Assembly (NCBI GenBank): GCA_041650895.1
Contig: JBAZKF010000001.1
Span: forward strand, 359,156 to 423,155
Reading direction: 5' to 3'
Source of the DNA: Patescibacteria group bacterium
GTDB taxonomy: Bacteria > Patescibacteriota > Patescibacteriia > 2-01-FULL-39-33
DNA length: 64,000 bases
Position numbers and translations under genes: made by a program. This document shows positions 26,192-30,847 of this stretch, piece after piece; position 1 is the stretch's first letter; each line of letters starts with the position of its first letter. Under the pieces are notes generated by a model. It was not told the DNA's origin and did no database searches. It worked only from the letters and a program-made list of their open reading frames with translations.

Positions 26192-26252
26192 AGAATCACG
26201 ACGAGAGAGGTTCTCTAAGGGTTTCGTCCCGACGAGAGCCTTTTTCATTTGT
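26192..26252 (+). ncRNA. Candidate small RNA (about 60 nt) driven by the orphan promoter, with nested stem-loops and a 3' T-run
   Basis: acgatagaatcacGACGAgagaggttctctaagggttTCGTCccgacgagagcctttttc: imperfect hairpins followed by TTTTT. Confidence 0.3.
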
Positions 26253-26781
26253 GTTTATTTTTATACTCCAACTTACCCTTCAAAGCATTTAAAAAAATCA
26301 AAATATTATTTGCCGAGGAACTTAAGCGATCCAAAAGACAAGAATAATTATTTTGATTCGGAATTAACACTCTCTTGAGTTTTGAGTTATTAATTAGATA
26401 TTCTACCAAACAATAAAAATCACCATCACCGGAAACAATAATGGCCTTATCATAATTAGAATATTCAATCATGGCGTGCAATACCAATTCGGCATCTACG
26501 TTACCCTTAACTGTGCCATCAGCTAATTCCAGTGTCGGTTTAAATACGCAAATATAGCCATACTCCTGTAATTTTGTATACATCGCTTGATTACCGGGTT
26601 TAAAGCCGATGAATAGGAAGGCCTTTTCAATGCCATATTTATCTTTAAGATAAATCCTGAATCTTCTATAATCAAGCTGCCAGCCGGAATAAATCTTCCG
26701 GTCTTTTTTATAAATGTCTTTTGACAAGCTTTGATATAAATTATTGCTGTCAATAAAAGCGTAGTTTTTTCCTTGTGGCAT
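26245..26781 (-). CDS. NYN-domain (LabA/DUF88, PIN-like) putative RNase, immediately downstream of the DGR RT on the same strand
   Basis: NYN hallmarks YAFIDSNNLY…, KAIIVSGDGDF; 178 aa. Confidence 0.65.
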   Translation of the reverse strand: MPQGKNYAFIDSNNLYQSLSKDIYKKDRKIYSGWQLDYRRFRIYLKDKYGIEKAFLFIGFKPGNQAMYTKLQEYGYICVFKPTLELADGTVKGNVDAELVLHAMIEYSNYDKAIIVSGDGDFYCLVEYLINNSKLKRVLIPNQNNYSCLLDRLSSSANNILIFLNALKGKLEYKNKHK

Positions 26782-26801: not shown

Positions 26802-27788
26802 TTAGCAAGTATAAGCCAAATTAGCAATTTTTCGTTGTAATTTATAGCTCTGGCCGTGACTCAATAAACCCAAATATGAATTCATGGTTTCCGGGTTATG
26901 ATTTTTCCTCACTCGCCTGAACATCCTTCTTTTACTCGCCGTCCGAAACACCCGATGATCAAAAAAATTCACCCAACCCAGAAAGTCTAAGCCGGGACTT
27001 AAAGTTTTGATAAATAGCTTATCGGGATGAAGCGTCAGTTTCATTTTATCTCTCAAATAAGCATCAACCGATGGAATTATTTTTTCCAAATAATTTTTAT
27101 CATCAGCCATAATCACGAAGTCATCGGCATAGCGGATATAATATTTTACTTTCAGTTTATGCTTAACAAATTGATCAAATCTGTTCATATAAATATTAAC
27201 CAATAACTGCGAAGTTAAATTCCCCAACGGCAAACCTCCGTTAAAACTGTCAATCGCCTCGTCTAATAAACCCAAAATCTTTTTATCCGGAATATACTCG
27301 GCCAGGATATTTTCCAATATCCCATGATCGATATTGGCAAAAAATTTCCTGATGTCACCCTTTAAAATCCAACAAGTGTGGGTGTTATTCTGGCTGGCTT
27401 TGTAAGCAAATTTCTTGAATCTGGCCAAGGCCTTATGCGTGCCCTTGCCCAGCCGGCAGGAATAAGAATCGACGATGAAAGTCCGGTCAAAAAACGGATA
27501 CAAAATCCGATAAATCGCATGATGAACCAACCTATCACTGACCGACGCCTTATGGATTTGCCGCGACTTGGGATCGCAGATCTTAAAGGCCTGGTAGCCG
27601 CCATGGCGATAAGCGCCGGTTGCCAAATCCCGATGCAATGCGATAAGATTATCCATAAGGCGCAATTGGAATTCCTGCACGTCTTTTCTATTCCTTTTGC
27701 CCCTGACAAACTCCTGCCAAGCCAACAATAAATTATCAAGACAGATAATCTCTTCAAAAGTATGGCTCAACTTGATTTTCCCGTTCAT
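26802..27788 (-). CDS. Diversity-generating retroelement (DGR) reverse transcriptase
   Basis: RT domains with a YADD catalytic box (YIRYADDFVIM) and motif 4 LPLGNLTSQLLVNIYM (the DGR-specific xGxxxSQ, not the QGxxSP of group II/retron RTs). 328 aa, no maturase or endonuclease domain. Adjacent TR/VR pairs are present. Confidence 0.9.
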   Translation of the reverse strand: MNGKIKLSHTFEEIICLDNLLLAWQEFVRGKRNRKDVQEFQLRLMDNLIALHRDLATGAYRHGGYQAFKICDPKSRQIHKASVSDRLVHHAIYRILYPFFDRTFIVDSYSCRLGKGTHKALARFKKFAYKASQNNTHTCWILKGDIRKFFANIDHGILENILAEYIPDKKILGLLDEAIDSFNGGLPLGNLTSQLLVNIYMNRFDQFVKHKLKVKYYIRYADDFVIMADDKNYLEKIIPSVDAYLRDKMKLTLHPDKLFIKTLSPGLDFLGWVNFFDHRVFRTASKRRMFRRVRKNHNPETMNSYLGLLSHGQSYKLQRKIANLAYTC

Positions 27789-27815
27789 AATGATTCCTTT
27801 AATTTACCCCCCCCC

Positions 27816-27825
27816 CAACGGAAAA
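27816..27825. repeat. C10 homopolymeric tract between the divergent RT and avd1 genes
   Basis: cccccccccc in an AT-rich intergenic/5' region; a candidate slipped-strand phase-variation site. Confidence 0.6.
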
Positions 27826-27834
27826 TTTATCCCG

Positions 27835-28140
27835 TTGATTCAAAAAACCAAAACGCTATACATAGTATGGCATGGTTACTACCAATCTCTACCCAAAACC
27901 CATAAATACTCATTGGGTCAAAAAATCGACATCTTCTTTATTGAGGCGATTGAAGCTATGGCTACCGCCAGTTTCCTGCCACCACAAGCCAAACCGCCTC
28001 ATATCTGCCTAGCAATTCAAAAAATTGATTTGATAAAAATCATGCTAATGATTCTATGGGAGATAAAGGCGATTGATAATAATAAGTATTTAAATCTATC
28101 GCAACCACTAGACGAAATCGGCCGGATGCTAGGCGGCTAG
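27835..28140 (+). CDS. Avd-like four-helix-bundle (23S rRNA IVS protein family) accessory protein, copy 1 (start uncertain; no in-frame ATG until 27958)
   Basis: The C-terminus …LWEIKAIDNNKYLNLSQPLDEIGRMLGG matches the Avd/four-helix-bundle family C-terminal helix (…EIGkmLggW). It is paralogous to copy 2 with synonymous third-position differences in this frame. It is on the strand opposite to the RT and TR. Confidence 0.45.
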   Translation: MIQKTKTLYIVWHGYYQSLPKTHKYSLGQKIDIFFIEAIEAMATASFLPPQAKPPHICLAIQKIDLIKIMLMILWEIKAIDNNKYLNLSQPLDEIGRMLGG

Positions 28141-28149
28141 TACAACAAA

Positions 28150-28185
28150 CTGACAAAACAAAACTCCCCGGATAAACTCAGGGAG
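28150..28185 (-). terminator. Hairpin CTCCC-N12-GGGGAG plus T-run immediately 3' of TR1 (minus sense): DGR RNA 3' structure or terminator
   Basis: Minus-sense sequence …cgcaac tctctttatttttCTCCCtgagtttatccGGGGAGttttgtttt. The same element follows TR2. Confidence 0.5.
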
Positions 28186-28199
28186 AAAAATAAAGAGAG

Positions 28200-28320
28200 T
28201 TGCGGAGCGCAGCCGGATTATCGACGTTGAAGTCGTTATCAAGCCAGTTGTAGTTCCAGTTCCATCTGTCGCCATTCCAGTACAGGTAACGCACATACAG
28301 GTTGTCGTCCGAGTTGCGAT
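28200..28320 (-). repeat. DGR template repeat TR1 (cognate to VR1 at 28702-28822)
   Basis: 121-nt match to VR1. All 20 mismatches fall on TR adenines in the minus sense (TR AAC, GAC, TAC, AAT or AGA codons against G, D, C, R or F codons in the VR). Minus-sense TR1 encodes …RNSDDNLYVRYLYWNGDRWNWNYNWLDNDFNVDNPAALRN. Confidence 0.9.
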
Positions 28321-28576
28321 TTTCGCAAAATTCCGCCTAAACCACCATCCGTTGATCCGCCGACTGGCGGAATCTCCAGATTGAATCTTATGCGTGAGCT
28401 AAACTCACATAGAACATTGCGCCAAGTATCTTTACTTTAATTAGGCATTAATATATTACGCTACTACTGACATTGATCAGTAATATTCTGAATAATACTA
28501 ACACCGGCTGAGGTAGCGGATAGCCGTAACCAACCGCGGATTTACCTGTGGCTATTTACATAATAGCAGAATAATT

Positions 28577-28697: not shown

Positions 28698-29255
28698 CTA
28701 CTTGCGGAGCGCAGCCGGATCACCGACGCCGAAGCCGCCATCAAGCCAGCCGTAGCCCCAGTCCCATCCGCCGCCACCCCAGCACAGGTAACGCACAAAC
28801 AGGCGGTCGTCCGAGTCGCGATAAATAGTCCCCCAAAAGAAAATACATTTGCCTTTCCATTCTTCCGGAATCAACTCGAGATGTGCGAGTAAATAGTCAA
28901 GAACATTAGCGTTCAAGACCAGCTTGCCGGCCAACAACTTACGCAAAGCGTGACCTTTGACGATGTTATTCTTCTGGTCATTGGCCAGATAAAGCTCAAT
29001 CAATGCCGGATTCCACTCCAGTTGACCGCCCTTCTGGTGTTCTTCAACTTTCCAGCCGGACGGAACGAAAGGATGAACGTCGCAGTCAATAATGTACTTG
29101 GTCACGATGATTTCCGCCAAGCCATGCAGCACTTTCTTGAATTCCGCCAAACTCTTAAACTGCTGGAGCTTCGTCATCTCCTCCGGCGTATAACCAGCAG
29201 CTTCAAAAGCATCCATTACCTTGTTGGCTTGGCCTACCGAGTAAAGCGTGGACAT
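28698..29255 (-). CDS. DGR target (variable) protein 1; C-terminal VR at 28702-28822
   Basis: Probable start MSTLYSVGQ… with RBS AGGAGA; the track ORF extends to 29285 via GTG. The C-terminus …FVRYLCWGGGGWDWGYGWLDGGFGVGDPAALRK differs from the TR1-encoded peptide only at Asn/adenine-containing codons. It is paralogous to target 2 (shared core …VLDYL…IPEEWK…FFWGTI…). Confidence 0.85.
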   Translation of the reverse strand: MSTLYSVGQANKVMDAFEAAGYTPEEMTKLQQFKSLAEFKKVLHGLAEIIVTKYIIDCDVHPFVPSGWKVEEHQKGGQLEWNPALIELYLANDQKNNIVKGHALRKLLAGKLVLNANVLDYLLAHLELIPEEWKGKCIFFWGTIYRDSDDRLFVRYLCWGGGGWDWGYGWLDGGFGVGDPAALRK

Positions 29256-29338
29256 AGTCCATCTCCTTTTTGCGGACACGTTCACTTTGGAACCCGTCCA
29301 GTTTGAGGTGCGAATTGGCCTTGCATACAGAGCAATTC

Positions 29339-29455: not shown

Positions 29456-29701
29456 ATGGAAGCAATTGCCACGGCCAGTTTCCTGGACAAACTGAGTAAG
29501 TCGCCGTATGTGGAAACAGCGATCAGAAAAACTGATATTTTAAAAATATTATTATTACTTTTGTGGGAGACAAAATCATTAGATAATAATAAATATTTGG
29601 CCTTATCAATTAAGATTGATGAGGTGGGCAAAATGCTTGGCGGCTGGAAAGGACAATTACTAAGTAAAAACTCCCCCGACAATAAAGCGGGAGAGAAATG
29701 A
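29456..29701 (+). CDS. Avd-like four-helix-bundle accessory protein, copy 2 (81 aa)
   Basis: MEAIATASFL…LWETKSLDNNKYLALSIKIDEVGKMLGGW…; resembles the BPP-1 Avd C-terminus (…EVGRILGSW…). A 40-nt upstream element (aaatttaaacaaaaaatcacc…ttgggataATG) is shared with a truncated third copy at 31508-31556. Confidence 0.5.
   Translation: MEAIATASFLDKLSKSPYVETAIRKTDILKILLLLLWETKSLDNNKYLALSIKIDEVGKMLGGWKGQLLSKNSPDNKAGEK
29663..29695 (-). terminator. Hairpin CTCTCCCGC-N-GGGGGAG plus T-run immediately 3' of TR2 (minus sense), homologous to the element after TR1
   Basis: Minus-sense sequence …gcaactcacttcatttCTCTCCCgctttattgtcGGGGGAGttttta. Confidence 0.5.
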
Positions 29702-29707
29702 AGTGAG

Positions 29708-29829
29708 TTGCGAGAACCGCAGCCGGATTATCGACGTTGAAGTCGTTATCAAGCCAGTTATAGTTCTCATTCCACTGGCTGTCGTTCCAATACAAGTAAC
29801 GGACGTAGAGGTTGCCATCAGAGTTGCGG
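29708..29829 (-). repeat. DGR template repeat TR2 (cognate to VR2 at 30184-30305)
   Basis: 122 nt, with no indels against VR2. The minus-sense sequence encodes RNSDGNLYVRYLYWNDSQWNENYNWLDNDFNVDNPAAVLA against the VR2 peptide RRSDGRLYVRCLFWSGSQWRGCYSWLDSGFVGGSPAAVLA. Most mismatches fall at TR adenines, and four non-adenine mismatches cluster at the 3' end (IMH/IMH*-like). Confidence 0.85.
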
Positions 29830-30065
29830 TTGTATGTGGCGCGCCGCCGATATCACTGCCCGTCGAATACTCTCTGGGCTGGATCTTATTTGTGATCTTA
29901 AATCACTTAGCGCTCCGCACCAAGTATCTTCATTTTTGAAGTTTCTACAGGCGCCACACTGCCTGAAGCCTTGACCGCAGGCATTCTCGGCGACTGGACA
30001 CTGGATTCGGTGGCAAGCAGCCATAACCGCTTGCTGATATTCACCTAATACCTTTTTTATTTTAG

Positions 30066-30169: not shown

Positions 30170-30847
30170 CTAAGCGCTGATACTTGCGAGAACCGCAGCG
30201 GGGCTGCCGCCGACGAAGCCGCTATCAAGCCAGCTATAGCACCCACGCCACTGGCTGCCGCTCCAAAACAAGCAACGGACGTAGAGGCGGCCATCAGAGC
30301 GGCGGAAAATTGTGCCCCAGAAAAAGATAAAGATAATATTTCCTTTTTCATTTTTTTCCTTCCACTCTTCGGGGATGTACTCCTGATTGGCCCTAAGAAA
30401 GTCCAGAACGCTTGCCGACAACACCGGCCGGCCGTCAAGTTCTTTACGTAGTTCATGGCCGACAATAAATCGACCGTTAACCTGGAGCGTTGAGCGATAC
30501 AAAACGACTTTCTGTCCGTCAATGTATAAACCGTCAAATCTCTTTTCAATTGAAATCTTGCCCTGGCGGGCATGTTTCTCAACTGTTGCGTCAGTAAATG
30601 GCGGTCGCGGATCATTGTCCGTATCAATTACCGCCCGAAGGATCGGCGTTGTCTGGCGCAGAAATTCCTCGCCGATTTCCTTGAGTTTCTCAACAAAAAA
30701 ACTCTTGCCCGGACCAGTCGCCCAATCAATCACTTCGGCGCCGACCTTGATTTTCTTCAGAGTTGCGGCTATCAGCGAGAATAGATTGGCGAGCGCCGCC
30801 ACAAACTGCCCGACTTCCTTCCAATTCAAACTCTTTTTCGTCGACAT
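30170..30847 (-). CDS. DGR target (variable) protein 2; C-terminal VR at 30184-30305
   Basis: 225 aa; paralogous to target 1, and its C-terminus matches the TR2 product apart from differences at Asn codons. Confidence 0.85.
   Translation of the reverse strand: MSTKKSLNWKEVGQFVAALANLFSLIAATLKKIKVGAEVIDWATGPGKSFFVEKLKEIGEEFLRQTTPILRAVIDTDNDPRPPFTDATVEKHARQGKISIEKRFDGLYIDGQKVVLYRSTLQVNGRFIVGHELRKELDGRPVLSASVLDFLRANQEYIPEEWKEKNEKGNIIFIFFWGTIFRRSDGRLYVRCLFWSGSQWRGCYSWLDSGFVGGSPAAVLASISA

Follow-up and report, generated by a model that had tools for sequence, protein, structure and literature searches.

Translational phase variation by homopolymeric tracts is well described for the poly-G tracts of Campylobacter jejuni, the poly-G/C tracts of Neisseria and Helicobacter, and the C run of Bordetella pertussis bvgS. 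In the Bordetella phage system, the reverse transcriptase (RT) of the diversity-generating retroelement (DGR) requires the accessory protein Avd for cDNA synthesis. Here we describe a feature that may link these two subjects, namely, a run of ten cytosines located where the divergent avd and RT genes of a DGR meet, in a 64,000-nucleotide (nt) stretch of a Patescibacteria genome (contig JBAZKF010000001.1; the whole stretch is called the window below). Based on a comparison with related loci, we tentatively propose, with slightly less than even confidence, that the Patescibacteria DGR machinery is under a heritable stochastic switch, in which a homopolymer or (CT)n repeat in the overlapping 5' ends of avd and RT would turn Avd on and off. 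Patescibacteria DGRs are the main cellular DGR clade of groundwater and aquatic microbes, and bacteria of the Candidate Phyla Radiation (CPR) carry DGRs very often in tiny genomes. Little is known about how cells hold DGR mutagenesis in check or time it.

The locus is a genuine DGR of architecture B3, TR-(avd)-RT (TR, template repeat), in a Patescibacteria metagenome-assembled genome. This architecture makes up 90% of the CPR DGR set of Wu et al. (2018, PMC5758913), and DGR clade 2 is restricted to Patescibacteria (Roux et al. 2021, PMC8144416). The window locus matches the B3/clade 2 DGRs exactly in gene order, orientation, and host group, and the homologues of its RT are Patescibacteria RTs adjoining avd. 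Term searches within PMC5758913 and PMC8144416 returned no mention of a homopolymer, of an overlap of the avd and RT 5' ends, or of a scrambling of the avd frame. Likewise, we found no description of the run in the searchable literature on DGRs with repeat slippage or phase variation.

On the plus strand, the run is flanked as TAATTTA-CCCCCCCCCC-AACGGA. The second-longest G/C homopolymer of the window measures only 6, and base composition predicts ~0.04 C runs and ~0.005 G runs of at least 10 per window. The same G10 was found in an independent Logan assembly of SRR8542065 (contig L001). The initial annotation, which had singled out this tract as a possible phase variation switch, gave its length correctly and placed it at 27816-27825, nine bases to the right of its actual position (27807-27816), which still falls within the interval reported then (27789-27840). 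The RT start that it gave at 27788 on the minus strand is in agreement with a start codon at 27786-27788, and its description of the locus as otherwise AT-rich is moderately true, with a GC content of 40-43% locally and 44% in the whole window. The 50-nt gap that it saw between the two genes is only apparent, as the avd frame is open through the run, homology to the Avd core begins at 27835, and ATGs are present at 27790 and 27762.

To see whether the tract recurs in related genomes, as had been suggested as a check, we gathered 118 related loci via the RT protein; metagenomes supplied 80 of them, and species-representative genomes the other 38. Removal of duplicates left 73 distinct locus families, whose RTs are 53-83% identical to that of the window. 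avd was divergent from RT in every related locus with enough upstream sequence, and 56 of the 73 families had a G/C run of at least 7 in the corresponding position, on the stretch that separates the RT start from the Avd core. Run lengths, which come from short-read assemblies, were 10 (26 families), 9 (17), and 11 (10), with one family each at 7, 8, and 14. Thus, 53 of the 56 runs measure 9-11 and, like the C10 of the window, have a slip-capable length (about 8 or more for a G/C run). Run-anchored profiles showed that the flanks are weakly conserved, the run being the most conserved nucleotide feature of the junction, and in most relatives it is followed by a conserved TTA and a purine-rich box. 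Three loci harbor a (CT)n repeat instead of the C run at the same place: (CT)10 in L016, (CT)8 in L100, and (CT)6 in L028. Because these repeats occupy the same position, repetitiveness rather than G/C content appears to be preserved, and on this comparison the feature kept is a slippage-prone repeat and not a G- or C-specific signal.

Two other explanations for this conservation were discarded. The run is not a general habit of these genomes, since other G/C runs of at least 7 are rare in ~600 kb of related loci, where they are located in unrelated GC-rich palindromes. Selection for poly-proline at the protein level was also rejected, because CCC represents only 23% of the Pro codons in these genes, yet the homopolymer is pure in 56 families. 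A scan of viral contigs recovered one distant RT (36% identity), with no run. Some loci depart from the common form. A G14 run was found in L088, and the Avd homologue P0144 has six consecutive prolines after the conserved N terminus (MTQLNFHTSNSTPPPPPPINLQ…), which points to some lineages with a far longer run. In L016, the repeat also falls within the RT frame (…RERERE…), with no RT start codon after it, and could therefore shift both genes.

In relatives, gene callers place the Avd start before the run, at a conserved ATG antisense to the codon of RT His9. These proteins follow the pattern M-x-Q-L-N-F-H...PPP...LLPVLQK, in which the run is read as prolines. The Avd of the closest relatives begins at this ATG as well; P0242, for example, starts with MAQLNFPVHNDSFNYPPPNGKF..., and its N-terminal part including the run reads MAQLNFPVHNDSFNYPPPNGKFIPLIQK.... 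Between the conserved ATG and the run, 52 of 55 run-bearing loci have no stop in the frame of that ATG, the other two frames being open in 14/55 and 3/55, and at least one ATG-initiated open reading frame (ORF) reads into the run in 56 of 58 loci. The first nine RT codons are antisense to this conserved avd 5' frame. RT His9 is encoded by CAT in 69 of 71 loci, compared to 61% CAT elsewhere in RT, and within RT codons 2-8, the codons that read as stops in antisense are scarce: TTA and CTA account for 2/64 Leu codons versus 34% in the RT body, and TCA accounts for 0/28 Ser codons versus 17%. We infer from these patterns that the upstream ATG is the avd start used.

With this start, avd and RT are predicted to overlap head to head by ~25 nt, and the run lies in an N-terminal extension of Avd and not in an empty gap. 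Read in this way, the sequence places the repeat within the reading frame and downstream of the start codon. Avd-core homology starts 11-28 nt after the run, and the residues that follow the run (x-L-L-P-[VIL]-L-Q-K) differ by synonymous Leu codons, indicating that they are translated and do not represent a start site. Where more sequence separates avd from RT (52-127 nt, in L009, L035, and L065), the distance from the run to the Avd core is still only 11-15 nt, and an ORF beginning with ATG continues to enter the run.

Two roles of the run in RT expression were tried and rejected. The G run is not the ribosome-binding site of RT, because a separate purine-rich box intervenes between it and the RT start, from which it lies 12 to 127 nt away depending on the locus. 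Nor is the run part of the RT coding sequence, since RT starts after the run, with ATG (49 of 58 loci) or, in the other 9, with GTG or TTG; the exception is represented by the loci with (GA)n, as the repeat reads on the RT strand, where it is in the RT frame. Two observations concern the RT start itself. L035 (4887-5000) and L065 (4880-5000) carry an insertion of ~100 nt between the run and the RT start, which holds a 16-nt inverted repeat of RT codons 2-6 (TTCACCCCGTTAGAAA / TTTCTAACGGGGTGAA) and could form a hairpin occluding the RT start. A comparable pairing is possible in the window between RT codons 2-4 (AACGGGAAAA) and TTTTCCGTT, which lies immediately 5' of the G run.

We then compared the frame of the conserved ATG with that of the Avd core. 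In families without a run or with a run of at most 6, both are in frame in 15 of 17 cases (p = 4e-6 versus one third). The distance from ATG to core ranges from 11 to 26 codons in these families, and the frame has therefore been kept through many indels. In run-bearing families, offsets of 0, +1, and -1 were found in 20, 24, and 13 cases, respectively, which is indistinguishable from random (chi-square p = 0.2). When any upstream ATG is counted, the Avd frame is armed in 24 of 58 run-bearing loci, and 14 of 58 loci have two frames armed by upstream ATGs. Starts located after the run are not enriched in out-of-frame loci (17/37, versus 9/20 in in-frame loci). A canonical in-frame start anywhere ahead of the core is lacking in eight out-of-frame families, and in a further four the sole one is far upstream. 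The Avd core is nevertheless complete and stop-free in every out-of-frame locus, and core dN/dS values in out-of-frame pairs (0.14-0.27, only indicative because dS is saturated) are the same as in in-frame and run-less pairs. By these signs, the out-of-frame avd genes are not dead, and Avd must be made at least sometimes. To make it, these loci would need a frame change at the run.

Differences in run length were observed between near-identical contigs. L104 and L081 show 0 mismatches over 1108 nt, their sole difference being G10 versus G9, and L082 and L019 show 0 mismatches over 2077 nt, their sole difference being G10 versus G11. A third pair, L013 and L056, is 99.6% identical, with G10 and G11, respectively. 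None of the ~25 other homopolymers (A/T 7-8, G/C 6) in these pair alignments changes length. Both L104/L081 and L082/L019 combine a contig that is in frame with the conserved ATG and one that is not. We also searched for further length variants among contigs with an identical RT protein: three families were constant (G10, G8, and G6), another family had no run, and a fifth look-up yielded a single contig. As a sign of DGR activity, we compared the variable repeats (VRs) across 7 assemblies of an out-of-frame population; the consensus VRs were nearly identical and hence uninformative.

The first avd copy of the window, avd1, illustrates what a change of one base would do. Compared to its closest in-frame relative, L041, which also has C10, the window carries an extra T just before the run (ATTTAC versus ATTAC), placing the ATG at 27762 at +1. 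At C10, a second ATG (27790) has the right frame and gives an Avd of 116 amino acids (aa) in which the run appears as Y-PPP-N. In silico, C9 brings the conserved ATG at 27762 in frame and yields a 125-aa Avd, while at C11 neither ATG is in frame and only TTG 27835 remains. A switching of the protein by run length is therefore seen in silico, in the C9/C10/C11 translations and in the two contig pairs with one in-frame and one out-of-frame member. The second ATG is not conserved between close relatives.

Public gene calls for avd1 are a 116-aa protein from JGI (P0241) and, from NCBI, a 75-aa fragment only (P0125). The gene ends at a TAG (28138-28140) where relatives and the second copy, avd2, have a conserved Trp (…MLGGW…); beyond this Trp, ~18 residues follow in avd2 and ~30 in P0242 (155 aa). 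The avd calls of related loci are inconsistent too. In L132 (439-762), the start is apparently a non-canonical Ile codon by hand count; L122 and L123 have no avd call, though their junction (~110 nt upstream of the RT start) is identical to that of L121, where avd was called; and in L133 (262-682), avd is split into two ORFs. These inconsistent calls are a consequence of the run and of the missing canonical start.

Taken as a whole, the comparative evidence (a conserved run between a conserved ATG and the core, frame scrambling, and one-base differences between contigs) favors one route proposed in the initial annotation, namely, that a length change would frameshift an upstream-initiated avd1. 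Its other route, an altered spacing of the RT promoter or 5' untranslated region, gained no support, as no sigma-70-like hexamers flank the run and the run stays with avd when the spacing grows. We give roughly even weight to the proposal that the run acts as a slippage-prone frame switch on the supply of Avd, in its heritable, DNA-level version. Translation of avd would start at the ATG antisense to RT His9 and cross the RT start codon and ribosome-binding site; the frame would then read the C run as Pro-Pro-Pro and enter the four-helix Avd core 11-28 nt on. Replication slippage on 9-11 G:C pairs would gain or lose one base at high frequency, and each such change would shift the core in or out of frame with its start codon(s). 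The presence or absence of Avd would in turn gate DGR cDNA synthesis, mutagenic retrohoming being on in a subpopulation and off in the rest, reversibly. We infer both that DNA-level slippage occurs at a useful rate and that loss of Avd would stop this DGR.

The same frame could also be restored after replication. The frame would be corrected either by RNA polymerase slipping on C10/G10 or by ribosomes slipping +1/-1 on CCC CCC C, with poly-proline stalling as an aid; some Avd would then always be made, whatever the genomic length of the run, which would set a low or regulated level of the protein. We regard such recoding as unlikely, although it would accommodate the near-random offsets (20:24:13), a core that is intact and under purifying selection in every out-of-frame lineage, and the L015 family, which is fixed at an out-of-frame C9 across strains 96-100% identical. 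In addition, any run of at least 7 C is formally an X XXY YYZ slippery site, where tRNA-Pro can re-pair in every frame. However, programmed frameshift sites normally have a fixed offset and direction, and no single direction emerged from these loci. There was also no stable RNA structure, the fold of 27740-27900 on the minus strand, which is antisense to the avd mRNA, having z = 0.15 versus shuffles. Moreover, efficient transcriptional slippage is documented mainly for A/T runs, the (CT)n substitutes are not obvious ribosomal slip sites, and length differences between sister contigs exist at the DNA level. We find it rather improbable that the run is instead a cis-regulatory element of the divergent avd/RT region, its length tuning one or both genes, with Avd starting after the run (TTG 27835) and the upstream ORF being a leader peptide or an accident of the overlap. 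Such an element would fit the position of the run, which in most loci precedes the RT start by 12-36 nt and is followed by the conserved TTA and purine-rich box, and a divergent pair with an intergenic repeat recalls known promoter-spacer switches. It would also fit the canonical start (ATG, GTG, or TTG) found between run and core in ~45% of loci, including the window, with clear ATGs in the L004 and L121 families. Yet, a consensus scan of 27500-28400 for sigma-70-type promoters found no hexamer pair around the run, for which reason a promoter spacer was ruled out; RT has its own Shine-Dalgarno box; and at avd-RT spacings of 52-127 nt, the run stays by the Avd core and not by RT. Downstream starts are not enriched in out-of-frame loci, 8-12 families have none, and the synonymous Leu variation indicates that the residues after the run are translated. 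A cis-regulatory role would also leave unexplained the conserved open upstream frame and the in-frame rule (15/17) of run-less loci.

A further explanation, which we consider very improbable, is that the G run belongs to the DGR template RNA, as part of a long TR-spacer RNA involved in priming or in RT-Avd binding. TR1, the G run, and RT are indeed on the same strand, and the Bordetella DGR cannot function without the spacer that separates TR from the RT gene. In the window, however, a terminator-like hairpin and U run directly follow TR1, ~350 nt before the run, so that the TR1 RNA probably ends well before avd and the run. Furthermore, no significant structure and no Rfam match were found around the run, the TR2 cassette has no run after it, and (GA)n replaces the G run in three loci. 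A structured RNA at the run, considered separately, was ruled out, since the fold is not better than shuffles and no Rfam family matches there. Least credible of all is the absence of any function, the run being a neutral mutational hotspot or an artefact of assembly or sequencing. Homopolymer lengths are error-prone in short-read data, and the in-frame fraction equals the neutral expectation, but 56 families, originating from many studies and assemblers, share the position of the run, with lengths in the narrow range of 9-11. Two assemblies of the window genome agree, other long G/C runs are nearly absent from the ~600 kb of related loci, and a neutral run would decay by substitution.

Several points weigh against a switch acting at the DNA level. 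Only 3 of ~11 families with multiple assemblies differ in run length, by one base, and eight are constant; consensus length is stable at G9 in 7 assemblies (L015 family), G10 in 8 (P0096 family), G8 in 3, and G6 in 5. The one-base differences at G10 could be short-read assembly errors. The share of in-frame loci among those with a run (~35-41%) is what neutrality predicts, with no sign of selection for the "on" state, and slippage at the RNA level predicts the same frame pattern. The locus families are phylogenetically related, and their counts are not fully independent. In loci with a start after the run, Avd may be made whatever the run length, and the premature-looking TAG suggests that avd1 of the window may be impaired for a separate reason. 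Finally, the need for Avd in the Patescibacteria DGR clade is assumed by analogy with the Bordetella system.

Should the frame switch on Avd prove real, mutagenic retrohoming would take place in no more than a minority of the cells at a time, and this minority would shift. Such a system would represent a two-tier bet-hedging, in which a contingency locus controls a targeted hypermutator, kept across lineages with RTs down to 53% identity. A slippage switch on Avd would also be the first principle of regulation put forward for this DGR clade. In these genomes, avd is mis-called by annotation pipelines, as fragments, with non-canonical starts, or as no gene at all, and metagenome-based predictions of DGR activity should consider the state of the run. 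The overlap of avd and RT, with the avd start antisense to RT His9, is an unreported constraint on both genes.

Table 1. Features of the DGR locus in the window (positions count from the first nucleotide of the window)
Feature	Position	Strand	Basis or remark
DGR RT, 328 aa	26802-27788	-	Pfam RVT_1, E = 1e-22; LGNLTSQ and YADD motifs
Conserved upstream avd ATG	27762-27764	+	Antisense of RT His9 codon CAT; +1 out of frame with Avd core in the window
Out-of-frame ORF from conserved ATG at C10, 47 aa	27762-27905	+	ORF list and in silico C9/C10/C11 translation
avd1 as readable at C10, 116 aa	27790-28140	+	Between TR1 and RT, on the strand opposite both
Shine-Dalgarno-like AAGGAA of RT	27794-27799	-	5 nt before RT ATG, 7 nt after G run; read from sequence
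Homopolymer under study	27807-27816	C10 (+) / G10 (-)	Read from sequence; length repeated in assembly L001
Terminator-like hairpin, then U run	28164-28185	-	Directly after TR1; TTTTGTTTTG
Template repeat TR1	28200-28320	-	21/21 TR1/VR1 mismatches at TR adenines
Target gene 1	28698-29285	-	VR1 at 28702-28822, at 3' end, reaching ORF stop codon
avd2, second avd copy, 5'-truncated	29456-29701	+	HMM positions 33-101 only; no run, no adjacent RT
Template repeat TR2	29708-29830	-	21/25 TR2/VR2 mismatches at adenines
Target gene 2	30170-30847	-	VR2 at 30184-30306, at 3' end, reaching ORF stop codon

The coordinates of the locus are given in Table 1. avd1 matched Pfam bAvd (PF22296) with E = 4e-8 and 34 bits, which is below the curated cutoff of 40, and reached E = 4e-43 in an iterative hidden Markov model (HMM) search; its Avd-core homology starts at the TTG. 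One RT apparently serves two TR/VR pairs. The module target-VR-TR-(avd) is duplicated whole, and the homology of avd2 begins at avd1 position 27939. A hairpin resembling that of TR1 also follows TR2 (~29680-29700), and the post-TR hairpin may define the 3' end of a template RNA that is convergent with avd. Upstream of both TRs is a 66-nt element (28373-28438 and 29871-29936), whose copies are 71% identical. Between VR1 and TR1, at 28439-28492 on the minus strand, we found a sub-threshold Rfam match to the RT-7 RNA (RF03028; 26.6 bits versus a gathering threshold of 116.8), covering the 5' hairpin only. A gene with an NYN domain (predicted RNase) lies 20 nt downstream of RT on the same strand (26245-26781) and is present in L001 too.

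Among known systems, the homopolymeric contingency loci are similar to the DGR junction in having a pure G/C run of ~8-11 shortly after a start codon, in an AT-leaning genome, with a mix of in-frame and out-of-frame genomes and with single-base length changes that would shift the protein behind the run into or out of frame. Unlike in these loci, the DGR run would control the accessory protein of a retroelement and not a surface structure or a restriction-modification gene. It is also located in the 5' leader of a divergent, overlapping RT, and its switching is a prediction from sequence. At lic1 (licA) of Haemophilus influenzae, start codons in different frames upstream of the repeat lead to graded expression. 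Similarly, the window ATGs at 27762 and 27790 enter the run in two frames, and C9, C10, and C11 give three outcomes. However, the lic1 repeat is a tetranucleotide and the DGR repeat a homopolymer, and the second ATG of the DGR is not conserved.

Repeat-controlled promoters, such as the (TA)n between hifA and hifB of H. influenzae and the poly-G/C spacers of Neisseria porA and opc, represent another class. As in hifA/hifB, a simple repeat lies where divergent genes meet and could in principle affect both, but the DGR run has no flanking -35/-10 pair, is inside a conserved ORF, and follows avd and not RT. Programmed frameshifting and transcriptional slippage are exemplified by dnaX, the transposases of insertion sequences, and poly-A rescue in endosymbionts. 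In these as in the DGR loci, the start and the frame downstream of it are connected through a slippery homopolymer, and many DGR loci need a shift to make the protein. In contrast to such sites, the DGR loci show all three offsets and no conserved direction, and the minus-strand fold of the window region revealed no stimulatory structure. Compared to all these systems, what would be new in the proposed switch is its target, the accessory gene of a diversity-generating retroelement; the way in which avd and RT overlap head to head, and a conservation that spans an entire DGR clade, are new as well.

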